Shown here piece by piece: positions 6,711 through 26,834 of a stretch of DNA of 32,000 nucleotides (position 1 is the stretch's first letter; each line of letters opens with the position of its first letter). Both the position numbers and the translations under genes were made by a program. This stretch comes from Oscillospiraceae bacterium (GTDB lineage: Bacteria > Bacillota > Clostridia > Oscillospirales > CAG-272). The notes below the pieces were generated by a model, which searched no databases, had not been told where the DNA came from, and saw only the letters and a program-made list of their open reading frames with translations. The stretch lies in the NCBI GenBank assembly GCA_015064445.1, contig SVSE01000004.1:131393-163392 (forward strand), given 5' to 3'.

Positions 6711-6837
6711 TTCGATTGATTAGAACAAGTTAGGTTAGGCGCACCGGAAACTGCGGACGACGGCGTACTTGGTGTACGGTTAGGTCGCAGTTGAGGAGCA
6801 ACAACACATAACGCAGTTATAATCGGTCGAAATTAGT
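6711..6837 (-). repeat. Stop-codon-anchored imperfect-palindrome element, copy A1 (after recA)
   Basis: 127 nt. The flanks are identical to copy A2 (36 nt and 45 nt). The 16-nt terminal inverted repeats are ttcgattgattagaac (6711-6726) and gttataatcggtcgaa (6816-6831). The repeat runs through the recA TAA. Confidence 0.85.
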
Positions 6838-7942
6838 CTTCGAGTCCGAGCGCGCTAAGATCAAAATCCCCATTATCCAAAATGTCGTCCTCCATCTCTG
6901 GAGCTTCGCCATTAGCAAGCTTTGCTTTGATTTTTTCCTCAAGCTCTGCCATTATGTCAGGGCTTGCCTCAAGATGCGCCCTCATCTTGTCCTTACCTTG
7001 AATTTTTGTTTCGCCATAGGTAAAGAATGAGCCACTCTTTTCAACAATTCCGAGCTCGATTGCCATATCAACGATTTCAGTTGACTTGGAAATGCCCGAG
7101 CCATAGAGAATCTCGAACTCTGCTACCTTAAATGGTGGAGCAACCTTGTTTTTAACAACCTTTGCCTTAACTCTGTTACCGTAAGCCTCGCTTCCGTTTT
7201 TGAGAGTTTCGCTCTTTCTTATATCAATTCTAACCGATGCATAGAATTTAAGCGCGTTACCACCTGTTGTTGTTTCAGGATTTCCGTACATAACGCCTAT
7301 CTTGCTTCTGAGCTGGTTGATAAAGATAAGAATACAGTTTGTCTTGTTGATTGCACCTGCGAGCTTACGGAGCGCCTGTGACATAAGTCTTGCCTGTACG
7401 CCCATATGACTGTCGCCCATTCCACCCTCGATTTCCTGCTGAGGAACGAGTGCAGCAACGGAGTCAATTACAATTATATCCACAGCGCCAGAGTTTATAA
7501 GCGCCTCGGCAATTTCGAGTGCCTGCTCTCCATTATCTGGCTGTGAAACCAAAAGCTCGTCAATGTCAACACCGATAGCCTTTGCATATACAGGATCGAG
7601 TGCGTGCTCTGCATCGATAAATGCAGCAGTTCCTCCCTGCTTTTGGCTTTCTGCCACTGCGTGAAGTGCTATTGTTGTCTTACCTGATGATTCAGGACCA
7701 TAAATTTCAATAATTCTTCCCTTTGGAAGTCCACCTACGCCAAGCGCAAGGTCAAGGGAAAGAGAGCCTGTTGATACTGCACTGATTTTGATATCAGGAG
7801 CATCGCCCAAACGGATAATTGAGCCCTCGCCATTATCCTTTCTTATCTGAGCAAGTGCTGTTTCAAGGGCCTTTTTTCTCTGATCAGCTGTGCTTTCAGC
7901 TACGCCCTTTTTTTCAGTCTTTGCCGACTTCTTTGTTGCCAT
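6833..7942 (-). CDS. recA: Recombinase RecA
   Basis: 369 aa with Walker [10 protein letters not shown] and full-length RecA-like sequence ([20 protein letters not shown]..). Confidence 0.97.
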
Positions 7943-8093
7943 ATTTATTCCTTTCCGCGCGGTCGAGAGCCTCGACGGGCATCATCCGCGTTCGATTCTT
8001 TAATTTGCTTAGTCCTCACGAAGCAATTTTCACTTCGCATTCCGAATTTCATTACTTATTAAATTCGAGCAAAACTCGTATTTAAGTGTCTTT

Positions 8094-8207
8094 GTGCTAA
8101 ACAAGACAAGGCGCACCGGAAGAACAACGGACGACGGTGTATACTCATACTCCGAGGTCGGTGTTCGGGAGCAACGCAGTATTGTAACGCACAAAGCGCT
8201 TAAATTA
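8094..8207 (-). repeat. Stop-codon-anchored imperfect-palindrome element, copy B1 (after the lipoprotein gene)
   Basis: Shares caagacaaggcgcaccg..gacgacggtgtat..tactccgaggtcgg..cgggagcaacg with the reverse complements of 26362-26466 and 26722-26834. It begins TAATTTAAG at the gene's stop codon. Confidence 0.8.
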
Positions 8208-8765
8208 ATAAGTAGGACCGTCTATTCTCCAACCGTCAGCCTCGTAAACCAAAACAACCTCAAGTGTGCTATCTCCGTCTACGCTTTTAACGGTGGCTTT
8301 TATTTCTCTTCTTCTGTTTTTTGTAATTTCAAGCGTTGATGTGTCGTATTTTTCAACCTCGTCCAAGATATTATCATAATCCTTACGCACGGTTAGGTAT
8401 CCGTCGTAGCCTGTTATATATCTTGCGTAAAGGACAACTCCGTAGCTCGATGTGCCATCGATATAAACGCTTATCAAATCGTCTGCTATTCTATCGGAGA
8501 AAACAGCCTTTGTTTCAACGATTAGGTCGTTTCGGAGCTTAAAGGGCGAATCCTCTGCTATATGATAATAGCTTCCCTCAACCTGCTCCTCCTCATCGTA
8601 GGGCAAGCCCTCTCCGTAATATGCCACATTGAGATTATACGAGCGCTCGAGGAGGTCGCACGCGATATCGTACGCCTCTTCATCGCTTTGTCTTTTACAG
8701 GATGGGAGCAAAATAACGCTCGCCAGCAATAAAACCATCAACAGAACAGCTATAAATCTTCTCAT
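8205..8765 (-). CDS. Hypothetical lipoprotein
   Basis: Signal peptide with a lipobox (LLPSC). The ATG lies 3 nt after the gyrA stop. I recognise no family. Confidence 0.6.
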   Translation of the reverse strand: MRRFIAVLLMVLLLASVILLPSCKRQSDEEAYDIACDLLERSYNLNVAYYGEGLPYDEEEQVEGSYYHIAEDSPFKLRNDLIVETKAVFSDRIADDLISVYIDGTSSYGVVLYARYITGYDGYLTVRKDYDNILDEVEKYDTSTLEITKNRRREIKATVKSVDGDSTLEVVLVYEADGWRIDGPTY

Positions 8766-8768
8766 AGC

Positions 8769-11309
8769 TTATTCAGCCTTTGGCGCATCCTCGGTAGCCT
8801 CTGGAGCTGTGTCTGTAGCATCTGCTACTACCTCGCCCTCGACTGCCTCGATTTCCTCTTCGTCTTCCTCTCTGTCTGTAAAGGTCATCTTCGCAACCTT
8901 ATTGCCCTCAGAGATTCTGATTACACGAACACCTGATGCGCTTCTATTATATACAGGAACCTCGTCAACATGAGTTCTTATAACAACACCTGCGTCGGTA
9001 ATTGCCATAATGTCATCCTCTACCGTTACAGCACCGATTGTTGCAAGCCTTCCTGTCTTATCGTTTACATTGTGTGCACGAACACCGAATATACCACGGT
9101 TTCTTGCCTCGAAGTCGCTAAACTCACTGCGCTTACCAAAGCCGTTTTCGGTAACTGTGAGAAGCTGCTTTGTATCATCAACGATAACTGCACCACAAAC
9201 CTCGTCATCTCCACGAAGCTCAATACCACGAACACCACGGGCAGTTCTACCAACGATAGAAACCTTGTCCTCGTTAAAGCGTACGCCCTGGCCGTTTCTT
9301 GATGCAATAAGAATATCGCTGTCGCCCTTAGTGTGTCCAACGAAGATAAGCTCATCGCCCTCGTCAAGATTGATTGCAATCTTTCCACCCTTGCGCTGAT
9401 ATTCATATTCCATAACTCTTGTGCGCTTAATTACGCCCTTGCGAGTTACCATTGTGAGATATTCATTCTCCTCGAAGGAATCAATTGCTATCATAGCAGT
9501 AACCTTTTCGCCCTTTTCGATTTCGATAATGTTGATAAGGTTAGCGCCCTTTGATGTTCTTGAGCCCTCTGGGATTCTATAAACCTTTCTTACGAAAATC
9601 TTACCATTGTCAGTAAACATAAGAAGGTGTGAGTGTGAATTTGCAACGAGAATGTTCTCAATGAAGTCCTCGTCCTTTGTGCCCATTGCGATAAGTCCCT
9701 TACCACCTCTGTGCTGTGCCTCGTAGGTGTCGGCAGGTACTCTCTTAATGTAGCCTGAATTTGTAAGAGTGATTACGCACTCGTGTCTTTCAATCAAGTC
9801 CTCAAGGTCGATTTCGTCCTCGCTGTCAACTATCTCTGTACGACGGTCGTCTGCGTATTTTCTCTTGATTTCCAAGAGCTCGCTCTTGATGATTTCTCTA
9901 ATCTTTTGTGGGTCAGCCAAGATACCGTTAAGCTCTGCAATAGTTGCGTGAAGCTTTTCAAGACGGTCCTCAACCTTTTGTCTTTCCATACCACTAAGGC
10001 GTCCGAGAGTCATTTCAACTATTGCCTGTGCCTGCTCATCACTTAGCAAGAAGCGCTCCGAGAGTCTTTCCTTTGCAACAGCTGTGCTTTCGCTTGAACG
10101 AATAATTGAGATTACCTCATCGATATTGTCAATAGCTATCTTATAGCCCTCGTAGATATGTGCCTCAGCCTGAGCCTTACGAAGCTCAAAGCGAGTTCTT
10201 CTCTCAACAACCTCCTCCTGGAACTTGATATACTCGCCCAAAATCTCACGAAGTCCAAGTGTCTTTGGCTCTCCGTTTACGAGCACGAGCATATTCATAG
10301 CGCAGGTGTCCTGAAGCTGTGTATTCTTGTAAAGCTGATTAAGAATTACCTGAAGGTTCGCATCACGGCGACACTCAATAACAATTCTCATACCAGCGCG
10401 TCCACTCTCGTCACGAATACCTGTAATTCCCTCTACGCGCTTGTCCTTAACGAGGTCAACCATCTTTTCGATAAGCTGGCTCTTGTTTACCATATAAGGG
10501 ATTTCAGTTACAACGATTCTGTGGTGCTCCTCATCACATTCAGCCTTGGAGCGAACTGCAACACGACCTCTACCTGTGGTGTATGCATCAAGAATTCCCT
10601 TCTTGCCATAGATTGTAGCATAGGTTGGGAAGTCTGGACCCTTTACATACTCCATCATTTCCTCAACTGTTGCCTCAGGATTGTCGATAAGATGAACTGT
10701 ACCGTCAATTACCTCGCCAAGGTTGTGCGGTGGAATATTTGTTGCCATACCAACTGCGATACCAACGCTTCCGTTTACAAGCACATTTGGGAAGCGAGAT
10801 GGGAGCACGGTTGGCTCCTTTCTCGAGTTATCGAAGTTAGGAACGAAGTCCACAACCTCTTTTTCGATATCTGCCATAAGCTCATTTGCGAGCTTAGACA
10901 TTCTTGCCTCTGTATAACGGTAAGCAGCAGCGCCATCGCCGTCAACATTACCGAAGTTTCCGTGTCCATCGATAAGTGGATGACGAAGTGAGAAGGGCTG
11001 TGCCATTCTTACCATTGTTCCGTATACGGCTTGGTCGCCGTGTGGATGATATCTACCAAGCACATTACCGACGGTTGTCGCCGATTTTCTAAAGGGCTTG
11101 TCAGATGTGAGGTGGTCCTCATACATTGCGTACATTACGCGTCTTTGTCCTGGCTTCATACCGTCACGAACATCAGGCAACGCACGGGAAACTATAACGC
11201 TCATTGAGTATTCAAGGAACGCTTCCTTTACTCTTGACTCAATGTTGCGATTTACTATCATCTGCTCGATATTCTCATAATCAAGCACATTGTGTTCTTT
11301 TTCTGCCAT
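8769..11309 (-). CDS. gyrA: DNA gyrase subunit A
   Basis: 846 aa with the active-site region [13 protein letters not shown], the N-terminal [18 protein letters not shown] motif, beta-pinwheel CTD repeats and an acidic tail. A GGAGGAG RBS lies upstream of ATG 11309. Confidence 0.97.
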
Positions 11310-11327
11310 ATGGCTCCTCCAATTGGC

Positions 11328-11885
11328 AAATGCGGAATTCGGAGTGCGGAATTCGGAATGTATCCGTTTCCTCTTCCTTGTCCGTTTTGCCTATCATTTA
11401 TTGTTTAAATTTTCCTTGGTGGTTTTGGTTATTGACACCAAAATACTACAAATTTCATCAATGTTATTGTATATGCTTTCAAATTCGTTTTGCGTAAGAT
11501 ATTCCGTTTTATACAGCAACCTTATCCAATAGCTTGTTTCGTTAGCTTCCTTCAAGGCAATGGTCATTTTTGTATAAAAATCCGCAGTTGTTTGAGCTTT
11601 TTGAGCCTCGAAAACATTTGCTCCCACGCTCGTTCCACACCTCAAAAGCTGTTTTGATAAAACCGTTTCTTTTTTCTTGGCTTTTAAGTAGTTGCACAGC
11701 TTTACTATTCTAACGGCGAAATCAAAGCTTTTTTCTTCTATTACATTTCCCATTTCGTTTCGCTCCAAATATCATTCCGCATTTCGCAGGCACGCGCCTG
11801 AGGCAAATTCCGCACTCACTTAGTAAGTATTGAACAACCCTCGCGAAGCAATCTCATTCCGAATTCCGAATTCCGCATTCCGAAT

Positions 11886-11887
<2 letters not shown>
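11328..11887 (-). mobile_element. Inverted-heptamer cassette 1 carrying a four-helix-bundle gene (IVS-like element)
   Basis: The left arm is aaatgcggaattcggagtgcggaattcggaatg (11328-11360). The right arm is cattccgaattccgaattccgcattccgaattt (11855-11887). They match 29/33 as reverse complements. The cargo is the CDS at 11394-11753 plus module M (about 11800-11854). Mobility is inferred, not shown. Confidence 0.55.
11394..11753 (-). CDS. Four-helix-bundle protein (23S rRNA intervening-sequence protein family)
   Basis: 119 aa with the family hallmarks FDFAVRIVKL..LLRCGTSVGANVFEA..KMTIALKEANET.YW. I prefer ATG 11753, which has a GGAG RBS inside the track's TTG-initiated extension. Confidence 0.85.
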   Translation of the reverse strand: MGNVIEEKSFDFAVRIVKLCNYLKAKKKETVLSKQLLRCGTSVGANVFEAQKAQTTADFYTKMTIALKEANETSYWIRLLYKTEYLTQNEFESIYNNIDEICSILVSITKTTKENLNNK

Positions 11888-13928
<2,041 letters not shown>

Positions 13929-13959
13929 TCAGAATTTTAAGCTTTTAGTCGGTATCTTT

Positions 13960-13968
13960 ATTTTATCA
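13960..13968 (-). promoter_or_regulatory. Putative extended -10 (TGaTAAAAT) upstream of gyrB
   Basis: The minus strand reads tatgTGaTAAAATaaag. There is no good -35. The same TGATAAAAT 9-mer occurs at three other putative promoters in the window. Confidence 0.35.
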
Positions 13969-14025
13969 CATAAAAACGGACAAAACGGACAACCTGAGAG
14001 CCTCTCAGCTCTATGCACCTGCGGT

Positions 14026-14191
14026 GATGAATTGATGCTAACGCATCATGAATTCTCGCTTCGCTCCATGAATCGAATTGCAACACCAAATGCCGAAGGC
14101 AATTCATGCGATTTATCGCAATTCATGACACGCAGTGTCAATTCATGCAACGCAGTTGCAATTCATTGTGAAATAGCAGGAGCTATTTCAC
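14026..14191. repeat. Hairpin-chain array C1 (CATGAAT / AATTCATG cores)
   Basis: AATTCATG/T cores lie at 14101, 14120, 14140 and 14160 (spacing 19-20 bp), each followed by a 10-11 nt palindrome. The left half carries inverted CATGAAT cores. Homologous arrays lie at 17518-17677 and 29219-29437. Confidence 0.8.
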
Positions 14192-14428
14192 ATATTCCGT
14201 GTGCGACCCAATCGTCGATGAATTAAACGGGCTCAAATACACCGTTTCATCTCTCATTACAACAAACGATTTCGGTAGCTCGTAGCCGAGCGCCCTCACG
14301 CGCCCGTGCGCCTGCGCGCGTGATAAAAAATTTCGCGTATGCACGGACACCGTGGACGAGTCAAGGTCAAATATCGCCACAATGTCGCACCTTCTTACGC
14401 TTTTATTGTTTCCAAGGTTTACATACAT
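14183..14428 (-). CDS. remB: DUF370 / RemB-like small protein
   Basis: 81 aa. The N-terminus MYVNLGNNKSVRRCDIVAIFDLDS resembles the DUF370 (RemA/RemB) family, and the position between recF and gyrB is conserved in Firmicutes. Confidence 0.6.
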   Translation of the reverse strand: MYVNLGNNKSVRRCDIVAIFDLDSSTVSVHTRNFLSRAQAHGRVRALGYELPKSFVVMRDETVYLSPFNSSTIGSHTEYVK

Positions 14429-14433
14429 AGAAA

Positions 14434-14919
14434 GTTCGAAGTGCGAAACGCGAAGTGCGAAGTTATCTCTTGCACGGGCATTCTCGCATATCCTTTAGTT
14501 ATTTTTAGAAATATTTTCCTTTGTGGTTTTAGTTATTGCTACCAGCATTCCACAAATTTCTCTTGCATCCTTTTCTATACTTTCAAATTCGCTATCTGAA
14601 AGATAGTCGGTTTCGTGTAAAAGATTGATCCAATAAATGGTTTCGTTTGCTTCCTTTAATGCAATAGACATTTTTGCATAAAAATCGGGCTTTGATTGTC
14701 CTTTTTCGGCTTCAACTACGTTTGCGCCGATACTCGTTCCCGCCTTTAGAAGTTGATTTAAAAGAATCAAGTTGCTCTTTTTTTCTTTTAAGTGGTCGTA
14801 TAGCTTTACGATTCTGGTTGCGAATTTGAAGCTTTTTTCCTCTATAATGCTATTCATTTTCGCCACCAACCTTGAATTTCGCGTTTTCAACTTCGCACTC
14901 CGCACTTCGCACTTCACAC
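14434..14919 (-). mobile_element. Inverted-heptamer cassette 2 carrying a four-helix-bundle gene
   Basis: The left arm is gttcgaagtgcgaaacgcgaagtgcgaagtt (14434-14464). The right arm is cttcgcactccgcacttcgcacttcacac (14891-14919). They match about 24/29 as reverse complements, in TTCGCAC-type heptamer units. Mobility is inferred. Confidence 0.55.
14495..14857 (-). CDS. Four-helix-bundle protein (23S rRNA intervening-sequence protein family), paralog 2
   Basis: 120 aa (MNSIIEEKSFKFATRIVKL..GTSIGANVVEA..KMSIALKEANETIYW), by eye about 60% identical to the 11394-11753 product. ATG 14857 has a GGTGG RBS and overlaps the recF 3' end by 8 nt. Confidence 0.85.
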   Translation of the reverse strand: MNSIIEEKSFKFATRIVKLYDHLKEKKSNLILLNQLLKAGTSIGANVVEAEKGQSKPDFYAKMSIALKEANETIYWINLLHETDYLSDSEFESIEKDAREICGMLVAITKTTKENISKNN

Positions 14920-16019: not shown

Positions 16020-16020
16020 A

Positions 16021-16075: not shown

Positions 16076-16146
16076 ACTAAGAATTATACGAATAAATAAA
16101 TTAGCGTATTTTAGACACCTTAGAGCAAGTAAGGTCCTCTCTTTCA

Positions 16147-16272
16147 TTCGATTGATTAGAACAAGTTAGGTTAGGCGCACCGCAGGCGACAGACGAAGGC
16201 TATCTTATGATAGTCGAGGTTGTCGGCGAGGAGCAACAACACATAACGCAGTTATAATCGGTCGAAATTAGT
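16147..16272 (-). repeat. Stop-codon-anchored imperfect-palindrome element, copy A2 (after dnaN)
   Basis: 126 nt. The flanks are identical to A1. The 45-nt core is only about 44% identical to the A1 core but can still form the same two stems. The repeat runs through the dnaN TAA. Confidence 0.85.
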
Positions 16273-17413: not shown

Positions 17414-17445
17414 ATCTTTTCTCCCATTTGTTAGTCGTATTTTTT

Positions 17446-17499: not shown

Positions 17500-17517
17500 T
17501 TTTATATTAATTTAAAA

Positions 17518-17677
17518 ATGAATCGATGCATCGCATCATAAATTCTCGCTACGCTCCATGAATCGGCTTCGCCATGAATCGAATTGCAACCCAAATGCCG
17601 AAGGCAATTCATGCGACTTGTCGCAATTCATGACACGCAGTGTCGATTCACGCAACTGCTAGGTTGCAATTCATTGC
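17518..17677. repeat. Hairpin-chain array C2 (AATTCATG cores), abutting the DnaA-box cluster
   Basis: Cores lie at 17606, 17625, 17645 (gattcacg) and 17668, with spacing 19/20/23 bp. It is collinear with C1 and C3. Confidence 0.8.
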
Positions 17678-17683
17678 AAACCA

Positions 17684-18070
17684 CTTTCCACATTCGTGTT
17701 TTCACTTTCCACTCGGTGCGGTTTGATTTTTCCACATTTATCCACATCGGCGAAAAATCCGTTTGCCATAAGACTTTTTGTAGCCTTTCCACGCATAAGC
17801 TTTCCACAGTTGGTAATTTGGTGGATTGTTTCAAGATTTTTCCAACACACATTCCACGCATTTTTGCACTATGTTTTCCACTATATGAAGTGAGCAAATT
17901 TGCAGGAAAAATCCTCTTAAAAAGCGAGATTTCGGAGTTTTCCACGCTTTCCCTGTCCTCTACTACTACTCCTGCTAAGGAGTTAATATATATTAAGAAA
18001 AAACAAGAAAAAAGAAGTCGGGGCGGGGAAGCCCCCGCTATCAAATAAAACCGATGATTTATGTGGATAA
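17684..18070. other. oriC: oriC: DnaA-box cluster, DnaA-trio-like repeats and AT-rich unwinding element (dnaA-dnaN spacer)
   Basis: A perfect TTATCCACA lies at 17738-17746 and a perfect inverted TGTGGATAA at 18062-18070. Boxes with 1-2 mismatches, all in the same orientation, lie at 17684, 17704, 17728, 17785, 17800, 17837, 17850, 17874 and 17938. The tactactact tract at 17961-17970 reads TAGTAGTAG on the minus strand. An AT-rich stretch follows at 17981-18017. Confidence 0.85.
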
Positions 18071-18233
18071 CTCACAGTCGGGGCGGCCCGACAGCCGATA
18101 ATCCGTGTTTATCTTTACCTTTTTAAATTTTCAACTCATTCGTTTTTTATTCTCAAAGGCTAAATAGGGAATTATTTAATTTTATTTTCCCATATATTTT
18201 CTTTTTCCATATCGCCTCCGGGGGCGTCCCCGG

Positions 18234-19619
18234 TTAGTTACTAAGCTCTCTTATAATTTCCTTAATATCGAATGCGAAATCGCTATCCTTCTCCATTGCG
18301 TCCTTGACAGCCTTTTCGCTTGAAACAAGAGTTGATCTATCACGATTAAGAATCTTTGCAATTTGAGTTTGAGAAAGCGAGGTAAGCTCTCTTGCTATGT
18401 AAACGCAGATATGTCTTGCCATAGCAATATCCTTTTTTCTCTTTTCAGAGAGGATATCCTCACGCGAGATTCCGAACTTTGTGGAAACTGCCATTAGGAT
18501 TTCATCAAATTTCTTTGATTCATTTTCCTTAACCTGAACAAAGTCCTTTATTGCGTCCTTAACACGGTCAAAGCTAAGCTCTCCACCCTGCAAGAACTTA
18601 ATAGCGCCAAGCTTTTTAATAATTCCCTCAAGCTGACGGATTGATGATGAAACATTGTCGGCAATGTATTTCAAAATCTCGCTTGAAAGATAGATATTAT
18701 TCTGCTTTGCCTTTTGTTGAAGAATTGCGAGCCTTAAATCAAAGTCTGGCAAGGAAACATCTGCCAAAAGACCACTCAAAAATCTTGTTCTAAGTCTTTC
18801 CTCAAGAGTTTTGATTTCATTTGGTGGACGGTCCGAGGTCAAGATGATTTGCTTTCTTTCCTCATAAACTGCATTAAAGGTGTTGAAAACCTCAAGCTGT
18901 GTTGAATCTCTACCAGCGACGAACTGAATATCGTCAATTAGAAGAACATCAACGCGTCTAAACTTTTCTCTAAATTCAAAGGTTGTTTTATTTCTAATCG
19001 CCTCAACGAGCTGATTAGTAAACTCCTCGCCCTTGATATATACAATTTTCTTTGAAGGATATCTTTTTGCAAGCTTATTTGTAATAGCATAAAGAAGATG
19101 CGTCTTACCTACACCACTTGGTCCATAAATAAAGAGTGGATTATAGGCATTTGAGCGAAGCGTTTCAGGGTCATCAAGATCCTTTTCTGAAACTGCCCTT
19201 GCAGCAGCATATGCAAATTCGTTTGATGCGCCAACGATAAAGTTATCAAAGGTATAATCCGAGCGATAATCATCAGGCATTACAATATCATCAGCTGTAG
19301 CCTCTCCGAGCTCTACCTTTTTAAAATGCTCAAGCTTTGGGGCGGAAAGGTCAATTTCCTCATTCTCTGTTGAGATGATAACAATTCTTGGTCTATAATT
19401 AACGATTGAGCAAAGTGCGTCCTGCATTTCCTCTGCGAAGTTTTCCAAAATTACATCTCTTTTTAAGTTATTAGTTGTTGTGAACATTGCTTCCTTTGAG
19501 GTAAGAGAAACAAACTCCATATCACCAAACCAGAGATTGTAGGCTGTGTCGACATGCTTTGATTTCAAAATTTCCGACATAGGAGCCCAAATAGCTTCCA
19601 AATTTTTAAAGTCTGACAC
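18234..19619 (-). CDS. dnaA: Chromosomal replication initiator DnaA
   Basis: 461 aa with AAA+ Walker A GPSGVGKTHLL and a C-terminal DnaA-box-binding domain (DIAMARHICVYIAREL). It has a GTG start at 19619 with an AAGGAAGG RBS. Confidence 0.97.
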   Translation of the reverse strand: MSDFKNLEAIWAPMSEILKSKHVDTAYNLWFGDMEFVSLTSKEAMFTTTNNLKRDVILENFAEEMQDALCSIVNYRPRIVIISTENEEIDLSAPKLEHFKKVELGEATADDIVMPDDYRSDYTFDNFIVGASNEFAYAAARAVSEKDLDDPETLRSNAYNPLFIYGPSGVGKTHLLYAITNKLAKRYPSKKIVYIKGEEFTNQLVEAIRNKTTFEFREKFRRVDVLLIDDIQFVAGRDSTQLEVFNTFNAVYEERKQIILTSDRPPNEIKTLEERLRTRFLSGLLADVSLPDFDLRLAILQQKAKQNNIYLSSEILKYIADNVSSSIRQLEGIIKKLGAIKFLQGGELSFDRVKDAIKDFVQVKENESKKFDEILMAVSTKFGISREDILSEKRKKDIAMARHICVYIARELTSLSQTQIAKILNRDRSTLVSSEKAVKDAMEKDSDFAFDIKEIIRELSN

Positions 19620-19724
19620 TGTAAAATTCCTTCCTTTTTAGTCAATTTTTCATAAATTATCTATCTTCTATTCAATACGCACGCCTACGCGCGAACACGC
19701 GAGCGCATACTTACTCTATATTAA

Positions 19725-19753
19725 ATTATATAATAAATATTGTATATTGTCAA
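19725..19753 (-). promoter_or_regulatory. Putative sigma-A promoter of dnaA (TTGACA-17-TATAAT)
   Basis: The minus strand reads cTTGACAatatacaatatttattaTATAATtt, with both hexamers at consensus and a 17-nt spacer, about 100 nt upstream of the GTG start. Confidence 0.7.
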
Positions 19754-19793
19754 GAATTTTTTATCAATTTTCCACGCTCTTGCTTGATAATTA

Positions 19794-19822
19794 TTGACAA
19801 TAATAAAAAAATGTGATAAAAT
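19794..19822 (+). promoter_or_regulatory. Putative sigma-A promoter (TTGACA-17-TAAAAT, TG-extended) for the ECF S-component gene
   Basis: The sequence is ttaTTGACAataataaaaaaatgTGaTAAAATactc, 26 nt upstream of ATG 19848. Confidence 0.65.
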
Positions 19823-19847
19823 ACTCAAAAAATAAAGGAGATGCAAT

Positions 19848-20450
19848 ATGGAAAAGAAAAAAATATCAACGCTTACTCTTTGTGAGCTTGGAATACTTTT
19901 TGCACTTGTAATTGTTCTTCAATCAATATCAAGCATAGGTGTAGTAACTCTTTGCCTTTGCCTTGTTCCTATAACTCTTGGCGCTATGACAATCGACTGG
20001 CGTGGTGGCGCTATCTTGGGCTTTACCTTTGGTGTTGTAGCTTTATTTTGGGGAATTGTTGGAAAGGATGTATTCACACTTTACCTCTTTCAGGCAAATC
20101 CTGTAATGACAATTTTGATTTGCATTGTAAAGGGAACTCTTTGTGGAATTGCCCCAGCACTCATTTGGAAGCTTTTAAAGGACAAAAACGCGATTTTGGC
20201 GTCAGTTGTGGCATCAATTATCACACCTGTTGTAAACACAGGAATTTTCGCCCTTGGCGCACTCTTAATCAAAAAGGATGTAATAGGAGTTGCTAATACT
20301 CTCGGAATACAGTTCGATAATTTCTTCACACTTCTATTTGGAGTTCTCATCACAACAAACTTCTTAATTGAGCTTGTAATAAACATAGTTTGCTCCCCTG
20401 CTCTTTGCAAGGTTACACAGGTTGTTGAAAAAAATTTCAAAAAGTCTTGA
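19848..20450 (+). CDS. ECF-transporter S-component-like integral membrane protein (substrate unknown)
   Basis: 200 aa with about 6 TM helices, of the size and hydrophobic pattern typical of ECF S components, and an AAAGGAG RBS. The family call is by general resemblance only. Confidence 0.5.
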   Translation: MEKKKISTLTLCELGILFALVIVLQSISSIGVVTLCLCLVPITLGAMTIDWRGGAILGFTFGVVALFWGIVGKDVFTLYLFQANPVMTILICIVKGTLCGIAPALIWKLLKDKNAILASVVASIITPVVNTGIFALGALLIKKDVIGVANTLGIQFDNFFTLLFGVLITTNFLIELVINIVCSPALCKVTQVVEKNFKKS

Positions 20451-20475
20451 CATATAAAAAAATATGTGATATATT
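20447..20475 (+). promoter_or_regulatory. Putative promoter (TTGACA-17-TATATT, TG-extended) driving the tRNA-Ser leader
   Basis: The sequence is cTTGACAtataaaaaaatatgTGaTATATT, overlapping the stop codon of the upstream gene and about 160 nt upstream of the tRNA. Confidence 0.55.
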
Positions 20476-20638
20476 AAATAGGCAAAATGCGTTATATGCA
20501 GAAATAACTTGACCAAAGTCAAGAATGATTACACTAATCGCTTACAAGCGAGCTTGACGCGATTTTAGTTTAATTTGCGAAGCGAATTTAAATCAAAGAT
20601 TTAAAGCCATTCGATATTCTCTGCATATATAAACATAT

Positions 20639-20725
20639 GCAGGAATATCGAAGCGGTCACAACGAGGCGGTCTTGAAAACCGTTGGCCTAACGGCACGGG
20701 GGTTCGAATCCCTCTTCCTGCGCCA
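20639..20725 (+). tRNA. tRNA-Ser (anticodon UGA), class II with a long variable arm and encoded CCA
   Basis: Hand fold: acceptor GCAGGAA/TTCCTGC; D stem TCG/CGA; anticodon stem GCGGT/ACCGT with loop CTTGAAA; a 14-nt variable arm; T arm GGGGG-TTCGAAT-CCCTC; discriminator G followed by CCA. Confidence 0.8.
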
Positions 20726-20728
20726 AAT

Positions 20729-20764
20729 AAAAAAGGTAGTGTTTATTTAGCACTACCTTTTTTG
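20729..20764 (+). terminator. Intrinsic terminator after tRNA-Ser
   Basis: The sequence is aaaaaGGTAGTGtttatttagCACTACCtttttt. Confidence 0.8.
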
Positions 20765-20944
20765 TTTCTCATAAATGTAATGAGGGATTCGAACCGTAGG
20801 CGTTAAGAAACCATTCGGGGAATGATTTTAGACGGTGACCGAAGAATTTTGCAAAGATAATGAAAGATATTAAACAAATCCTTTGCAAAATTCAAGAACG
20901 AATTTCTCTTCCTGCTTTTTAAAAATTCCTTTTCTCCCATCAAA

Positions 20945-20978
20945 TAAAAAAGATAGGCAAGTAGCCTATCTTTTTTTA
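20945..20978 (-). terminator. Terminator after the Cys-rich lipoprotein gene (bidirectional shape)
   Basis: The sequence aaaaaaGATAGGCaagtaGCCTATCttttttt ends 3 nt from the stop codon at 20981. Confidence 0.75.
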
Positions 20979-20980
20979 TT

Positions 20981-23900
20981 TTAGTTATTCTCTTTTGATA
21001 TGCTTATAATGCTACCACAGTCTGGGCAATATGTAACATTGTCATTGACGGTTGGAGTGCTATTGTGCTCAAAATCCTCACAAGGCTTGTAATTTTGAAT
21101 TACAAAGTCAAATTCAACGCTATCAATATAATCCCAGCAATCAAACTCAAGAGTGTAGGTTACTCCCTCTACAAGATAACAATTTAAATAGAAATTATTA
21201 TCTACTCCACTATTGTCGTTAACAAGTATAAGAGAATCTTCCTCATAGATATATAATACTGTGTCATGGTCGCCAATAGAATAAAATGAGTAAAATCCAC
21301 TTACGCTTGGAGTAAATTCAAATGTATTATTTGAATTTGACAATGTATAATTATGTATTTGTGCAAAGGTATTATATGAGCATTGTGAGCAATTACCAGA
21401 GAGATGATAGCATTCGCCTGAGTCAATTACATTATATACAAGAGAATGGTCATCTATTAATGCAAAATTAGAGATACCGAGGCATTCAACACAAATATCG
21501 ATTAAAATTTGTCTGCCCAAGCAGCCTGTTGAATTAAAATCAATTTTATGTCTGCTTGTATAACAATCGCCACAAATATTAACTGCGCCCTCTGCTACTA
21601 CAAATGATATGTCAATATTTTCATCAAAATCATAGTCGCCAGCTCTTAAAACATAGGTCTCTCCCTCGATTAAATCATAGGTAATCAAGAAATTGTTATT
21701 TATTCCATCATCATCGTTTGATGCAACAAGCTTATATTCGTTATCAACTAGCATATAAAGCCTTGCCTCTGTGTCATAACCTGTTACGGAATAGAAGGAA
21801 TATGTAGCTGTTTTTGGAGCGGTAAATATGTAATCATAGCAATAGCTACCGTCTGATGCCATTCGTGTGCTAACATTAAATATTGTTGATATTGCGCTCT
21901 TATTACATTCGGTGCACCTTGCTGTAACGGTTGGATTGCCAGCATAGCCAGGCTCAACAGTAGGAGTAAATGTGTGCTCTATTTCCTCGTATGAGAATAT
22001 CTTTTCATAGAAAGGAGTATTTCCCTTGCAAATTTCAATGGTTGAATAGTAAAGAACGACACATCCGTCCTTATTTTCCTTGCCCTCGCCTATGCGAAGC
22101 TTATAATCACATGTGCTACAGGAATATTCCTTTACGCCACCAGACTCGACAAGTGTAAGAGATTCATAATCTCCGTAAAGATCAATTTGTCTGTTACATA
22201 CACACGCCATTATGTCAAGGTTATGGGAATTACAAATATTGTCGCCCTTGCTTTGGTCTAAATCAAGGCTATAAATAAGATCTGTTATATGAGAATTGAA
22301 TGGGAAAACATCATAATGGTCACAATTTTTGCAGGCTTTTGCCATATAACCACCGTTTTTACAGTTGCCATCAATTATATTTATATTAATATTCTCGTAA
22401 TCGTGAGATGTACTCGCTTCCTCAATATATTTATAATCCTCAAAAAGCACAACTCCAGCAATTTTAGCAGTAATATCAATGTATTTCATAGCGGTACAGC
22501 CATCTGTCTTGGTTGTTCCCTTTAATATGAATACAACCTCGCCATTTTGCGACTCATATTTTTCAAAACCGTCCTCCACTGTTTTAGTAAAATCAGAAAG
22601 GGAAATTTCATAAATATTTGAGCTAATGCAAGTGCCACATGGACAGTATTTTACATTTAAGACAAGCTCGTTTGAGATAGTTGAATCGTACGAGTTAAGA
22701 ATATATTCTTCCTCAATTAAGCCCTTGCACTCGTTTATTATTTCAGATTCAGAATAGTCACAGGCTGTGCACGCGCTTACAATTTCAACGCCGTCCTTAC
22801 AGGTTGCGCCAAGAAGATTATAGCTTTCTTCAAGATTGTGCTCGGTATATTCGTAAATAACGCTTGTAAGCGATGTTGTGCCATAGAAAATATCTCTTGT
22901 CATTACAGTATGGCAATTTTCATCGGTTGCCATTGAGTAGGAATACTTAATAGGACAGCTACTACATGAATAGGTGTATACAGTAACGCCATTTACAACC
23001 TCTGCTGATGGTGTCATAGTACAGCTATATTCATAATCCATGTCAATAACCAAGCCACACGCATCACAAACTCTATTTAAAATCCAAGCGCCAGGGCAAG
23101 CGTCATCACAGCCTGTCAAATCAACATATTTTTCGGTAAATGAGTTGTGATAGTCGCTCTTGTATGATGCCTTTTGGTGACATTCCTTACATTCGCCAAC
23201 CATAATCACGCCATCATAGCAGGATTTGTTTTCCTCGTCTGTGAAAAGATATTTTATGTCCCAATCACACTCGCCACCAGCATATTCTTCGTCGATAAAT
23301 GAGGTAATAGGAGTGTCATTTTGGTCGTAAATTACAAGCTCGACAACATCTGTTTTGTTACAGCCGTCTAATTTTGTGTACTTGTCGATGACTATCTTAA
23401 GTGAGCAATCATCGCAGTCAATTGTTGTTATATTGTGTGTTAGTCCATCGAGCTTTGTTACACTCTCGGCTTCAGGCATTACACCATCATTACAAAAGAT
23501 TTCATATTCTTGAACATATAAAATCTCGCCACAGTCCTCACAAGCGCCAACATAGAAGTAGTTGTGACAGCTACTATACTCTCTTAGGTCAAGATAATAA
23601 GATACAGCATTTGAGTGACTTGGAATTTGCTCGACAACCGAGCCATCAAGATATGTATTTTTATCGTCGAAAATTTTAACTGAAAGCGAAAGCTCCTCAA
23701 CACAATTGCTTTTTGAGGTAACCTGTGTTTGATTTGACTTAATTCCACAGGTGGTGCAGGTGCCATTTTTGTCAAGGGTGCAAAGATATGAAAGGCATTC
23801 CGTATCTAAGGTCTGCATTTTACATTCCTTACACTCGGTGTAGCCAATAAAGCTTGGGCAGTAGCCATAATCGGCAAGATTTAGATACTTTGTATCAAGC

Positions 23901-24400
23901 TCCTTATGAGGACATTCGCTCTTACATCTAATGCACTTACCGTCGTTTTTATACTCGTGGCCAAGCGCGCTTATTTCAATTTCCTTAGACTCGGTATAGG
24001 TTGTTCCCTCAAAGGAAGCAGATGCGCGAATATATTTCTTACCATTTGCAGTACAGGTAGGCGCATCGCCTGCAACCTCCTCAAGTGTTGCTGAGATATT
24101 TTTCTCGTGTGCGCTATTAATCGAGCATTTTAGAGAAAGAAATGCAAAGCTCAAATCGTCGCTCCAAATCCAGCCCGACACCTCATAGTCGTGCTCAAGC
24201 GTAATTTCAAGCGCTTTAGTTTCCGTTTCGGTGCAATTCTTACAGGTTCTCTTCTGCTCTCCTGCGCTTTCGCAGGTGGGGGCTACGGTAATAATCCATT
24301 CGCCAAAGTCGTGCGATTCACATTCCTTATCACAGGAAAAAAGCACAAGCGAAAGGCAAATTATCATAGCACAAATTAAAAGTGATAGTAATTTTTTCAT
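20981..24400 (-). CDS. Large Cys-rich surface lipoprotein with two C-terminal PPC-like (pre-peptidase C-terminal) domains
   Basis: 1139 aa with a lipobox (LVLFSC) and an AAAGGAG RBS. The module H-x-[FYL]...C-x3-8-G...C-x2-C recurs many times. Two C-terminal repeats of about 85 aa (F.FTP...Y.FYS.G.DT.LY......ND......F.....L.EG.TY.L) have the look of PPC domains. Confidence 0.7.
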   Translation of the reverse strand: MKKLLSLLICAMIICLSLVLFSCDKECESHDFGEWIITVAPTCESAGEQKRTCKNCTETETKALEITLEHDYEVSGWIWSDDLSFAFLSLKCSINSAHEKNISATLEEVAGDAPTCTANGKKYIRASASFEGTTYTESKEIEISALGHEYKNDGKCIRCKSECPHKELDTKYLNLADYGYCPSFIGYTECKECKMQTLDTECLSYLCTLDKNGTCTTCGIKSNQTQVTSKSNCVEELSLSVKIFDDKNTYLDGSVVEQIPSHSNAVSYYLDLREYSSCHNYFYVGACEDCGEILYVQEYEIFCNDGVMPEAESVTKLDGLTHNITTIDCDDCSLKIVIDKYTKLDGCNKTDVVELVIYDQNDTPITSFIDEEYAGGECDWDIKYLFTDEENKSCYDGVIMVGECKECHQKASYKSDYHNSFTEKYVDLTGCDDACPGAWILNRVCDACGLVIDMDYEYSCTMTPSAEVVNGVTVYTYSCSSCPIKYSYSMATDENCHTVMTRDIFYGTTSLTSVIYEYTEHNLEESYNLLGATCKDGVEIVSACTACDYSESEIINECKGLIEEEYILNSYDSTISNELVLNVKYCPCGTCISSNIYEISLSDFTKTVEDGFEKYESQNGEVVFILKGTTKTDGCTAMKYIDITAKIAGVVLFEDYKYIEEASTSHDYENININIIDGNCKNGGYMAKACKNCDHYDVFPFNSHITDLIYSLDLDQSKGDNICNSHNLDIMACVCNRQIDLYGDYESLTLVESGGVKEYSCSTCDYKLRIGEGKENKDGCVVLYYSTIEICKGNTPFYEKIFSYEEIEHTFTPTVEPGYAGNPTVTARCTECNKSAISTIFNVSTRMASDGSYCYDYIFTAPKTATYSFYSVTGYDTEARLYMLVDNEYKLVASNDDDGINNNFLITYDLIEGETYVLRAGDYDFDENIDISFVVAEGAVNICGDCYTSRHKIDFNSTGCLGRQILIDICVECLGISNFALIDDHSLVYNVIDSGECYHLSGNCSQCSYNTFAQIHNYTLSNSNNTFEFTPSVSGFYSFYSIGDHDTVLYIYEEDSLILVNDNSGVDNNFYLNCYLVEGVTYTLEFDCWDYIDSVEFDFVIQNYKPCEDFEHNSTPTVNDNVTYCPDCGSIISISKENN

Positions 24401-24483
24401 AAGTGTCTCCTTTTAATGTTTTCTCCTGATTCTATACTACCAAAAAATCAAAAAAATGTCAATAAAAATAATGCGCGCCATAG

Positions 24484-24513
24484 TTGACAAAGTAAGGGAG
24501 GTTATGATAAAAT
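24484..24513 (+). promoter_or_regulatory. Putative promoter (TTGACA-18-TAAAAT, TG-extended) of the flavodiiron gene
   Basis: The sequence is agTTGACAaagtaagggaggttaTGaTAAAATtt, about 58 nt upstream of ATG 24571. Confidence 0.6.
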
Positions 24514-24570
24514 TTATTTGAAAACGATAGTTTTTATAAAAAATGGTTAAAATTAACACGAGGTGATAAG

Positions 24571-26361
24571 ATGTTTATTACAAATGATATCAAGTATATC
24601 GGTGTAAACGACCACAAGATCGACCTTTTTGAGGGACAGTACGATGTGCCTAACGGAATGGCATACAATTCCTATGCAATTCTTGATAAAAAGGTTGCAA
24701 TTATCGACACAGTAGATGTAAATTTCACACACGAGTGGCTCGATAACATTCAAAATACACTTGCCGGCAGAAAGCCCGATTATCTCATAATTCAGCATAT
24801 GGAGCCTGACCATTCTGCAAATATCGCTAACTTTATGCGCGTATATCCAAATACAACCGTAGTTTCCTCGCAAAAGGCGTTTGCAATGATGCTCAACTTC
24901 TTTGGAACAGAGTTTACTGATAATAGAATCGTTGTTGGCGAGGGCGATACACTCTCCCTTGGCGAGCATACTCTTACCTTTGTTAGCGCGCCTATGGTTC
25001 ACTGGCCAGAGGTTATTGTGACATATGATTCAAGGGACAAGGTTCTCTTCTCTGCTGACGGCTTCGGCAAGTTCGGCGCACTCGATGTTGAGGAGGATTG
25101 GGCGTGCGAGGCAAGACGCTACTATATCGGTATCGTTGGCAAATATGGCGCACAGGTACAGGCGCTTTTGAAAAAGGCAGCAGGACTTGATATAAGCATT
25201 ATTTGTCCACTTCACGGTCCTGTTCTTAGTGAAAATCTTGGCTACTATATCGGTCTTTATAATATCTGGTCAAGCTACAGCGTTGAAAGTGACGGAATTG
25301 TAATTGCGTACACATCTGTGTATGGAAATACCAAAAAGGCAGTTATGCTCTTGGCTGAAAAGCTCAAGGAAAAGGGCTGTCCTAAGGTAGTTGTAAACGA
25401 CCTTGCAAGATGCGATATGGCAGAGGCAGTTGAGGACGCATTTAGATACGGAAAGCTCGTGCTTGCGACCACAACCTATAACGCAGAGATTTTCCCATTT
25501 ATGCGTGAGTTTATCAACCACCTAACTGAGCGTAACTTCCAAAATCGCACAGTTGCCTTTATCGAAAACGGCAGCTGGGCACCTCTTGCAACTAAGGTTA
25601 TGAGAGGAATGCTTGAAAAGAGCAAAAATCTTACCTATACCGACGCAACCGTTAGAATTATGAGCGCGCTAAACGAGGAAAGCACCTCGCAAATTGAGGC
25701 ACTTGCAAGCGAGCTTTGTCGTGATTATCTTGCGCGTCAGAGTGAAACTGCAAATAAGAACGACCTAAGCGCACTTTTCAATATCGGCTATGGTCTTTAT
25801 GTTGTAACCTGTAACGACGGTAAAAAGGACAACGGTCTTATCGTAAACACCGTTACACAGCTTACAAATACACCAAACCGTGTTGCTGTAACAATCAATA
25901 AGGAAAACTACTCGCACCATATAATTAAGCAGACAGGCGTTATGAATGTAAATTGCCTTTCTGTTGACACTCCATTCGCTGTTTTTGAAAAATTCGGCTT
26001 CCAGAGTGGTCGTAATGTAGATAAATTCGAGGGCTGTGAGCCACTCCGCTCCGACAACGGTCTTATCTTCCTTCCAAGAAACATAAATTCGTTTATGTCC
26101 CTTAAGGTTGAGAGCTATGTTGACCTCGATACTCACGGAATGTTCATCTGCTCCGTTACCGAGGCGCGCGTGATTTCCGATAGAGAAACAATGTCCTATA
26201 CCTATTATCTTGAAAATGTTAAGCCAAAGCCACAAACCGAGGGCAAAAAGGGCTATGTGTGCAAGATTTGTGGTTATGTTTACGAGGGCGATACTCTCCC
26301 CGACGACTTTATTTGTCCTTTGTGTAAGCATGGGGTTGCGGATTTTGAACCAATCGTCTAA
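24571..26361 (+). CDS. Multidomain flavodiiron protein: metallo-beta-lactamase-like diiron core, flavodoxin, flavin-reductase-like domain and C-terminal rubredoxin
   Basis: Diiron ligand motif HMEPDH, a flavodoxin segment (IVIAYTSVYGNTKK), a flavin-reductase-like segment (GLYVVTCNDGKKDNGLIVNTV) and a rubredoxin end (YVCKICGYVYEG..FICPLCKH). Confidence 0.85.
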   Translation: MFITNDIKYIGVNDHKIDLFEGQYDVPNGMAYNSYAILDKKVAIIDTVDVNFTHEWLDNIQNTLAGRKPDYLIIQHMEPDHSANIANFMRVYPNTTVVSSQKAFAMMLNFFGTEFTDNRIVVGEGDTLSLGEHTLTFVSAPMVHWPEVIVTYDSRDKVLFSADGFGKFGALDVEEDWACEARRYYIGIVGKYGAQVQALLKKAAGLDISIICPLHGPVLSENLGYYIGLYNIWSSYSVESDGIVIAYTSVYGNTKKAVMLLAEKLKEKGCPKVVVNDLARCDMAEAVEDAFRYGKLVLATTTYNAEIFPFMREFINHLTERNFQNRTVAFIENGSWAPLATKVMRGMLEKSKNLTYTDATVRIMSALNEESTSQIEALASELCRDYLARQSETANKNDLSALFNIGYGLYVVTCNDGKKDNGLIVNTVTQLTNTPNRVAVTINKENYSHHIIKQTGVMNVNCLSVDTPFAVFEKFGFQSGRNVDKFEGCEPLRSDNGLIFLPRNINSFMSLKVESYVDLDTHGMFICSVTEARVISDRETMSYTYYLENVKPKPQTEGKKGYVCKICGYVYEGDTLPDDFICPLCKHGVADFEPIV

Positions 26362-26466
26362 TGGTTTTATGCTTTGCAATACTGCGTTGCTCCCGAATGC
26401 CGACCTCGGAGTATGTAAATACACCATCGTCCGTCATTCTTCCGGTGCGCCTTGTCTTGCTTAGCC
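26362..26466 (+). repeat. Stop-codon-anchored imperfect-palindrome element, copy B2 (after the flavodiiron gene)
   Basis: It starts directly after the TAA at 26359-26361. The sequence is gctttgcaatactgcGTTGCTCCcgaatgccgacctcggagtat..atacacc..cgtccgtcattc..CGGTGCGCCttgtcttgc. Confidence 0.8.
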
Positions 26467-26565
26467 TAAAAGCCATTATCATAGGTGGTTTTATGCGTCG
26501 TTATGCGTCGTTACTAACCGCTTTCATCAAAAACAAATTAAAAATATATATAAGAGGTAAAAGCT

Positions 26566-26724
26566 ATGAAAAAGTATGTATGTGAAGTATGTGGATGGGA
26601 ATACGATGAGGCTGAGGGCGCTCCAGAGTACGGAATCGCTCCTGGCACAAAATTCGAGGATCTTCCAGAGGATTTCGAGTGCCCGCTTTGTGGAGTGGAT
26701 AAGACTAATTTCGCAGAAGCATAA
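26566..26724 (+). CDS. Rubredoxin (52 aa; below the ORF-track size cutoff)
   Basis: My own translation gives [52 protein letters not shown], with two CxxC pairs and an AAGAGG RBS 8 nt upstream. Confidence 0.9.
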
Positions 26725-26834
26725 TTTAAGAGGCTTATGCTTTGCAATACATCGTTGCTCCCGAATGCCGACCTCGGAGTATGCATATACACCGTCGCCC
26801 GTCATTCTTGCGGTGCGCCTTGTCTTGCTTTGCC
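26722..26834 (+). repeat. Stop-codon-anchored imperfect-palindrome element, copy B3 (after rubredoxin)
   Basis: It begins TAATTTAAG at the rubredoxin stop, as B1 does. It is about 90% identical to B2 and in direct orientation to it. Confidence 0.8.

Follow-up and report, generated by a model that had tools for sequence, protein, structure and literature searches.

Hairpin elements abutting stop codons in an Oscillospiraceae chromosome: insertions with rapid turnover and a possible structure-recognised mobility

Several families of palindromic repeats are known from the intergenic regions of bacteria. The hairpin elements described here, five copies of which lie in a stretch of 32,000 nucleotides from an Oscillospiraceae bacterium (GenBank assembly GCA_015064445.1, contig SVSE01000004.1, positions 131,393 to 163,392, hereafter the window), behave most like two of them, the REP/REPIN repeats and the attC sites of integrons, yet they lack the defining sequence features of either. 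REP classes carry GTAG or CGTC heads (PMC3733652). REP/REPIN repeats, which are linked to RAYT enzymes of the HUH Y1 type, are palindromes of 20-40 nt with an unpaired head of this kind, paired head to head. The present elements resemble them in being extragenic, multi-copy hairpins with compensatory stems, in varying between lineages and strains, in forming tandem clusters and in having no adjacent enzyme. In the present elements, however, GTAG occurs only within some apical stems and is variable there (GTAC, GTAT, CTATC), and the conserved boxes are different. They are also longer (~125 nt), contain an internal conserved mismatched helix and abut stop codons precisely and with a single polarity. 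Like these elements, integron attC sites start at the stop of an open reading frame (ORF) with fixed polarity, conserve structure over sequence except for short boxes and unpaired bases, and fold better on the bottom strand. The elements differ from attC in lacking the R and L cores and in standing behind core genes instead of promoterless cassettes, and the window contains no integron integrase.

Other described repeats are more distant. The ERIC/IRU, Correia (CREE), RUP and bcr1-type miniature inverted-repeat transposable elements (MITEs) are imperfect palindromes of ~100-170 nt that are transcribed, intergenic and polymorphic and form stem-loops in mRNA, but they have conserved terminal inverted repeats, target duplications and both orientations, whereas the termini here are hypervariable and the orientation is fixed in this lineage. 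PATE elements, derived from IS200/IS605, resemble the present elements in strand polarity, in the recognition of a hairpin and in one-sided insertion that leaves a short target unduplicated; PATEs consist of two separate subterminal hairpins without inverted termini, whereas one continuous hairpin with inverted ends is found here. As for the fixed target of PATE, the elements have TAA or TTAA directly on their left, without general duplication, but others follow TGA or TAG or stand at sites that are not stops. Mycobacterial MIRUs are intercistronic, follow the orientation of the operon and overlap the upstream stop codon with their ends, but they are tandem direct repeats that encode short peptides and not hairpins. 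Precise abutment to stops, fixed polarity in this lineage, a helix with pyrimidine mismatches and reassorting modules set the present elements apart among bacterial intergenic palindromic repeats.

Each of the five copies comprises a pair of boxes, GTTGCTCC (box 5) and GGTGCGCC (box 3), spaced by 50-52 nt. Box 5 occurs six times in the window against 0.68 expected and box 3 five times against 0.37, and 0 of 100 shuffles reach either count; the sixth box 5 (7137-7144) lies inside recA, is unpaired and is a chance occurrence. The copies are ~125-140 nt long with a mean column identity of 73% in alignment, and each folds into one long imperfect hairpin of ~120-130 nt. A sequence-only reading of the window had described five copies that begin at the stop codon of the gene upstream, all with the same polarity relative to that gene. 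Both observations are borne out. The hairpin starts 0-3 nt from the stop of a co-oriented gene in 5/5 cases, where the sequence reads TAATTT at four copies and TAATGG at the remaining one. Copies 1 and 3 (subfamily A) have identical arms and boxes, and their inner hairpins differ by compensatory changes. Copy 2, of subfamily B like copies 4 and 5, has the ends TTTAAGCGC...CACTTAAA, and the stem of copy 4 opens with the stop TAA itself (TAATGG...CCATTA). The gene map (ORFs, precomputed gene calls and Pfam) gives no Pfam match for the ORF upstream of copy 2, whose earlier label as a lipoprotein is tentative. All coordinates are collected in the table.

We built a hidden Markov model (HMM) from the five copies and iterated it over loci (designated L with a number) from strain look-ups and pattern scans. 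This recovered ~79 distinct copies of the family in 65 loci. The contig scan pattern GTTGCTCC-N38-62-GGTGCGCC was too loose, most of its 119 loci being chance matches in high-GC genomes; of the 120 loci that a tighter pattern gave on metagenomes, ~45 were real. In this lineage of the Oscillospiraceae/Ruminococcaceae the non-coding repeats are numerous and polymorphic, and the family is apparently undescribed. No Rfam match was found on either strand: cmscan of the whole window at the gathering threshold, and of positions 6600-8300 at E<=10, returned a tRNA and noise, and nine related loci gave rRNA and tRNA matches only. BLAST of the element against plasmid and phage collections found nothing similar, the single match in a scan of viral sequences was not confirmed by the HMM, and literature searches for the box sequences yielded nothing relevant.

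The hairpin has three parts. The outer stem, of ~25-35 nt per arm, is hypervariable between subfamilies, its arms being complementary within a copy (examples are TTTAAGCGCTTTGTGC, TAATGGTTTTATGC, ATTTCGACCGATTATAAC and ATTTTTGAACATTGATAGC). It encloses a conserved irregular helix in which GCAATACTGC-GTTGCTCC pairs with GGTGCGCC-TTGTCTTGC; the mismatches of this helix (T.C, T.T or a T bulge, and T.C) are invariant, in keeping with the conserved mismatches noted earlier in the paired flanks. The inner hairpin comprises two stems, P2 and P3, which covary freely. Over 67 distinct cores, 94.2% of the cells are paired compared with 76.4% in shuffles, and both sides are changed in 192 cells compared with 54, a value reached by none of 500 shuffles. 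The signal is lost when the partner is slid by 1-3 columns. P3 alone shows 54 double changes and no single-sided one, and P2 contains 12 G.U pairs and ~50 non-pairs. The boxes pair with each other, since copies found only by the HMM carry the compensatory variants GTTGGTCC/GGTCCGCC and GTTGTTCC/GGTACGCC. The outermost pair of the minimum free energy fold over-extends the helix and was not used as its boundary. Termini are thus the hypervariable and internal boxes the conserved part of the element, the outer arms differing completely between subfamilies. Modules also reassort: L145 combines an inner hairpin of the recA type with arms of the B type. A sister subfamily, C, has other boxes (GTTACTAGC...GCAGAGCC, pairing through CTAG) within arms and inner stems like those of the main family. 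A search for orphan half-elements with degenerate boxes was swamped by noise. The bottom-strand sequence CAAGGCGCACCG also recalls the 5' region of 23S rRNA, but the match is short and was dropped.

Comparison with related strains and species shows that the elements are insertions with fast turnover. The site of copy 4 is empty in L254, L255, L256, L257 and L259; in L254, L255, L257 and L259 the flavodiiron-rubredoxin spacer is 15-25 nt long, and in relatives with a flavodiiron protein 84-87% identical to that of the window this spacer holds only the ribosome-binding site (RBS). At 93% flavodiiron identity (L252) the site contains other repeats, and at 90% (L253) it is filled by another B variant, the 16-bp arms of which are perfect and begin within ATT-TAA. 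The site of copy 5 is empty in L252, where the rubredoxin TAA is followed directly by the same terminator as stands after copy 5 in the window, and copy 2 is absent from the orthologous site in L003 and L005. In three strains with identical RecA, the TAA of gyrB is directly followed by three different fillers, namely an element carrying an ORF of the 23S_rRNA_IVP family (IVP) in the window, a copy of the present family in L005 and a third filler in L003. The stop of dnaN is similarly occupied by subfamily A in the window, by C in L003 and by a B-like copy in L186. Just downstream of the latter lies an orphan box 3 with an A-type arm, which indicates that the newest copy is the one nearest the stop; older halves downstream of the newest copy are also found in L002 and in the window, where a remnant of a subfamily-C 5' arm (TTTATGCGTCGTTACTA...) follows copy 4. 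Tandem copies occur in L022, L002, L140 and L218, and nested insertions in the apical loop in L002 and L003. A remnant TTAAGCGCTTAA in the window consists of both termini of a subfamily-B element without the interior, and its right flank TTAAATACG is common to copy 2; it is a possible footprint of a deletion by hairpin slippage. Density is patchy: the window holds five copies in 32 kb, relatives at 90-93% identity have one or two per locus, and no copy was found in ~98 kb from the relatives at 84-87% identity or, with the HMM, in the next 10 kb to the right of the window. No general direct duplication of the target was seen when filled and empty sites were compared by reading.

The weight of the anchoring on stops depends on the spacers assumed. 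For uniform placement in the present spacers of 183-262 nt, five starts within 4 nt of a stop have p ~2e-7; if the spacers once had the ~15 nt of the empty orthologous sites, p rises to ~1e-3. The compactness of the empty sites means that only the first bases after the stop can be hit without damage to the upstream ORF, the downstream RBS or the terminator, which may explain much of the anchoring. Across the family, 39 distinct copies follow a long sense ORF that ends inside the 5' arm, with its stop 18-51 nt upstream of box 5. These stops are TAA in 25, TGA in 10 and TAG in 4, and other copies stand behind intrinsic terminators (L145, L164), so the strict TAA target suggested by the window does not hold. 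The five TAA stops of the window are not significant by themselves, because TAA ends 14 of its 23 genes. In clear cases (L110, L211, L068, L022, L253) the 3' arm complements the stop, as TAA:TTA, TGA:TCA or TAG:CTA, the paired arms being CTGATTCG/CGAATCAG in L110, TGAGAC/GTCTCA in L211, GATAGGC/GCCTATC in L068 and CTTTAGGC/GCCTAAAG in L022. A helix covers the stop in 25 of the 39 copies, against 17 and 28 at upstream control codons, a background too high for the comparison to be informative; the claim that stops are paired therefore rests on the individual cases. In three species with queA-element-tgt, by reading, the distal arm pairs with the last codons of queA and tracks a synonymous CTG/CTC difference. 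TTAA flanks the element on either side in eight of 12 B-type copies, and copies 2 and 5 join their surroundings at a TTAA 3 nt after the stop and not at the stop itself. Copies of the ATTT...AAAT type (recA, dnaN, L054, L022, L003) have neither TA nor TTAA on the right side. One copy off any stop, with an extra insert of 47 nt between its 5' arm and box 5, was observed in the dnaA-dnaN (oriC) spacer of L252.

Polarity is less telling than it appears in the window. DnaA boxes place the replication origin, oriC, between the three minus-strand copies on its left and the two plus-strand copies on its right, as the sequence-only reading had it. This flip carries no information here, because the anchoring genes are all on the leading strand and gene direction flips too; three lagging-strand genes of the window carry no copy. 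Almost every copy of the lower-GC group that resembles those of the window shares its strand with the nearest gene upstream. With crude ORF calls, 43 of all copies have a same-strand upstream ORF and 16 an opposite-strand one, and the opposite-strand cases are concentrated in divergent, mostly higher-GC subfamilies. These subfamilies include some that run antisense to genes and rRNA operons. Divergent members antisense to rRNA were seen in a 16S-23S spacer locus (L227) and in a 23S-5S spacer (L161). The better-folding strand of these rRNA-operon copies is the transcribed strand. For two convergent gene pairs of known replichore (rubredoxin in the window, and L002) the copy is on the leading-strand gene, and no copy behind a lagging-strand gene was found or certified among the window and metagenome loci. 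GC skew and GC3 skew were noisy as proxies for the leading strand on metagenome loci, where the coding-strand effect dominates.

Two origins had been suggested for the elements, one in the RNA of 3' untranslated regions (3'UTRs) and the other in strand-specific insertion of single-stranded DNA (ssDNA). Each is partly supported, with different weight. To a structure-recognised mobile hairpin, moved in trans and anchored through an A/T-rich target together with purifying selection in short spacers, we assign about an even chance. The conserved mismatched helix, and not the termini, would then be the recognition site of a trans-acting, structure-specific enzyme, most likely an HUH-type nuclease or a tyrosine recombinase with folded ssDNA as its substrate, which would integrate the element strand-specifically at an A/T-rich TAA- or TTAA-like sequence. 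The class of the enzyme, the single-strand intermediate and this target rule are parts that we infer. Spacers before insertion would have been ~15-25 nt long, holding the RBS or terminator of the next gene, and the survivors would be insertions into the first bases after the stop. Such insertions would turn the stop codon into the foot of the stem, and templated or compensatory change may later have drawn the stop and the last codons into the pairing. Polarity would follow the upstream gene and, equally, the leading strand, and a strong stem-loop in the mRNA at the site of termination would be a by-product.

Insertion of ssDNA is favoured by the observed insertion and turnover, by the abutment of the target on the 5' side only, with no general duplication, and by the position of the conserved part, which is the internal mismatched helix and not the termini. 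The near-absence of wobble intermediates in the covarying stems fits pairing at the DNA level. A lead to the enzyme may come from box 3, which follows the inner hairpin on its 3' side after 3-5 nt and has GTGCGCC in common with the nick consensus of MOBQ origins of transfer (oriT). The MOBQ nick region is given as NWACCNNTAAGTGCGCCCTYNN (PMC3832669, PMC10333310), where, as in box 3, an inverted repeat precedes GTGCGCC by a few nt. Box 3 with its upstream hairpin resembles this region (TAAGTGCGCCCT) in the 7-mer only, the context of a relaxase is absent and the copies are dispersed in the chromosome.

Folding differs between the strands. As RNA, the mean energies are -42.5 kcal/mol for the sense and -49.6 kcal/mol for the antisense strand; as DNA, they are -21.8 and -26.2 kcal/mol. 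In 57-59 of 68 copies the better fold, by 4-7 kcal/mol, is that of the antisense strand, the leading-strand template; for the five window copies its z-scores range from -3.3 to -4.4, those of the sense strand from -1.1 to -2.9. Position-wise counting traces the asymmetry to 2-3 conserved A.C positions, so it may equally mean that the conserved mismatches have to be true mismatches on the sense strand. For the same reason an excess of A.C over G.T was dropped as proof of a functional bottom strand.

Several points weigh against a mobile hairpin. Better folding of the antisense strand is open to both readings. The search for an enzyme gave no candidate: the window has no transposase by Pfam, as stated earlier, and no recurrent family of transposase-like ORFs lies near the copies in 20-kb loci. 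The element is a single full-length palindrome, unlike the ends of IS200/IS605. Both boxes were part of the search pattern, which accounts in part for their invariance among the metagenome copies. Retention of queA-element-tgt in three species, with its codon covariation, also fits selection on RNA, and gene direction and replication direction are not separable in these loci.

The best of the rival explanations, which we nevertheless consider unlikely, is a cis-acting RNA module in 3'UTRs and in the spacers between cistrons, serving as a barrier to 3' exonucleases, an RNase III-type processing site or a brake on termination, with boxes bound by a putative conserved RNA-binding protein. The window copies all lie in transcribed spacers in sense orientation, copy 5 upstream of a terminator, and thus in the rubredoxin 3'UTR, and the others within operons. 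No T-run follows any of the five, which are not intrinsic terminators by that measure, and no terminator-like site was found after copies 1 and 2. The stops inside the 5' arm of 39 distinct copies, their base-pairing in the clear cases, the three species that keep the element between queA and tgt with pairing to the last queA codons, and the strong covariation would all suit such a module. Where the stem encloses the stop codon, the terminating ribosome would have to melt it. Liang, Rudd and Deutscher are said to have reported in 2015 that REP elements of E. coli brake termination when they lie no more than ~15 nt from a stop codon. On the other hand, the distribution is patchy and orthologous operons of close relatives work without the element; G.U pairs are nearly absent from the freely varying helices, the sense RNA is the less stable strand, and the orientation of divergent subfamilies is antisense to genes and rRNA operons. 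Some copies stand behind terminators or in the oriC spacer, and repeated gains at one site would still call for a mechanism of mobility.

More doubtful still is an ordinary MITE moved in trans by a DDE transposase of the IS5/IS427 or IS630 type with TTAA, YTAR or TA as its target. Such a site arises where T or C stands before a stop TAA, TTAA flanks 8 of 12 subfamily-B copies on both sides, copies 2 and 5 use the nearest TTAA in place of the stop, and the remnant TTAA-GCGC-TTAA after the TGA at 3677 looks like a footprint of excision or deletion. TTAA is itself palindromic, however, and the flanks are therefore indistinguishable from a longer inverted repeat, while copies of the ATTT...AAAT type lack TA and TTAA on the right. 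A transposase that binds the ends predicts conserved termini and variable internal boxes, the reverse of what is seen; full-length compensatory covariation of the interior would not be expected, and a palindromic target would yield both orientations.

Very unlikely, in our estimate, are attC-like sites, that is, folded single-stranded substrates of a tyrosine recombinase at ORF ends with the polarity of integron cassettes: starts at or over the stop with polarity fixed relative to the ORF (5/5 window copies), conserved structure with variable sequence and few conserved mismatched boxes, a better-folding bottom strand, runs of gene-element-gene-element (the window, L022) and the GH38 gene inserted inside one copy (see below) all recall them, but the core sites RYYYAAC/GTTRRRY are absent from both strands (opposite the GTT of box 5 stands CGCC), the neighbours are core housekeeping genes whose synteny is conserved (dnaA-dnaN-recF-gyrB-gyrA-recA), and no integrase is adjacent, the nearest phage-type integrase lying ~9 kb outside the window.

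If a dedicated enzyme does recognise the mismatched helix, the Clostridia of gut and rumen, in which, to our knowledge, REP/RAYT and integrons are essentially undescribed, would have a new mobility system based on hairpins, and its targeting of ORF ends would be an unusual rule. It is improbable, though conceivable, that the elements represent a new class of structure-specific ssDNA elements homing to ORF ends, with the mismatched helix cut by an HUH nuclease (at a MOBQ-like GTGCGCC nick) or a recombinase, and thus a parallel to attC and REPIN in Firmicutes that affects translation termination of recA, dnaN, gyrB and queA. Even as selfish DNA, the elements put stems of -35 to -45 kcal/mol on the termination sites of recA, dnaN, gyrB, queA and redox genes. 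Since copies differ between strains with identical proteins, differences in operon expression at the strain level are likely. The elements can also confound assembly, binning and the annotation of gene ends, and the size and covariation of the family are sufficient for a covariance model for annotation.

Box hairpins of a similar layout were seen in L040 (Pseudomonas sp. 286) and L096 (a Geobacteraceae metagenome-assembled genome): ACTGC-box 5 ... CACGTAG-loop-CTACG ... box 3-TTG within an outer stem, with a stop 38 nt upstream. A spread across phyla is only suggested by these, because both were selected by pattern and score weakly (L040, E 7e-5). In L253, a GH38 alpha-mannosidase gene lies between dnaN and recF, inside the apical loop of the element at the dnaN stop; it is flanked by an 11-nt direct repeat, CCGACTGCGGA, and the 3' half of the host element is missing.

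Table. Coordinates of the elements and of other features in the window and in related loci.
Feature	Locus	Position	Strand	Boxes	Setting
Copy 1, subfamily A	window	hairpin 6708-6834	-	box 5 6795-6802; box 3 6738-6745	recA stop TAA 6833-6835; hairpin start 6834; recA-element-(weak RecX match)
Copy 2, subfamily B	window	hairpin 8080-8205	-	box 5 8168-8175; box 3 8110-8117	stop 8205-8207 of 177-186 aa ORF; hairpin start 8205
Copy 3, subfamily A	window	hairpin 16147-16266	-	box 5 16230-16237; box 3 16174-16181	dnaN stop 16268-16270; hairpin start 16266
Copy 4, subfamily B	window	hairpin 26359-26478	+	box 5 26386-26393; box 3 26444-26451	stop 26359-26361 of 596-aa flavodiiron/flavin-reductase protein; hairpin start 26359
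Copy 5, subfamily B	window	hairpin 26725-26848	+	box 5 26754-26761; box 3 26812-26819	rubredoxin (26566-26724) stop 26722-26724; hairpin start 26725
Subfamily-C 5'-arm remnant	window	26483-26519	+		directly downstream of copy 4; weak nhmmer match (E 0.18) and by eye against L002 and L003
Subfamily-B remnant without interior	window	3665-3676	-		directly after TGA (3677-3679) of CDP-alcohol phosphatidyltransferase gene
Subfamily C copy	L002	19579-19720			
Subfamily C copy	L003	2245-2379			
Copy in oriC spacer	L252	3556-3740	-		dnaA-dnaN spacer
Divergent members	L227	1415-1497 and 1684-1748			16S-23S spacer locus
Divergent member	L161	1645-1727			23S-5S spacer
Box hairpin of similar layout	L040	1727-1802			
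GH38 alpha-mannosidase gene	L253	655-3152	-		inside element at dnaN stop
Bidirectional intrinsic terminator	window	26875-26904			between rubredoxin and convergent 177-aa zinc-ribbon gene
DnaA-box cluster	window	17728-17746 and 18062-18070			dnaA-dnaN spacer, adjoining dnaA (18234-19619, -); marks oriC
Second kind of inverted-repeat element	window	11310-11885	-		after gyrB stop
Second kind of inverted-repeat element	window	4270-4608	-		directly after a stop
Second kind of inverted-repeat element	window	~3400-3650			
IVP/bAvd-like ORF	window	11394-11768			in second-kind element at gyrB
Second IVP ORF	window	14495-14917			overlaps recF end
GAATTGCAACC motif	L252	11794-11830			after flavodiiron TGA
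GAATTGCAACC motif	L003	~6450-6520			behind gyrB
1139-aa ORF	window	20981-24400	-		adjoins oriC and tRNA
tRNA, 84 nt	window	20639-20722	+		between ECF-transporter gene and 1139-aa ORF

Leftward from oriC, the window encodes dnaA, dnaN, recF, an IVP ORF, remA, gyrB, a further IVP ORF, gyrA, the 177-aa ORF, recA, the weak RecX match and a MiaB-like gene. Rightward, an ECF component, a 1139-aa ORF (minus strand), the flavodiiron/flavin reductase, rubredoxin, the zinc-ribbon gene (minus strand) and parB/parA/parB follow. Elements of a second inverted-repeat kind also stand directly after stops, with the junctions TAA/ATTCGGAATGCGG at gyrB and TAA/CGAATTCGGAATGCGG at the MiaB-like gene; their arms are runs of a CGGAAT-like unit on the left and of ATTCCG on the right. 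The copy at gyrB carries the IVP/bAvd-like ORF. The motif GAATTGCAACC recurs behind two genes in related loci and may be a third kind of filler at these sites. The 1139-aa ORF is cysteine-rich, with a signal-like N-terminal sequence, no Pfam match and a low G+C content of ~0.36-0.38. It lies on the lagging strand, unrelated genes take its place in L252 and L253, and it may have been acquired recently. The neighbouring tRNA has a long variable arm.

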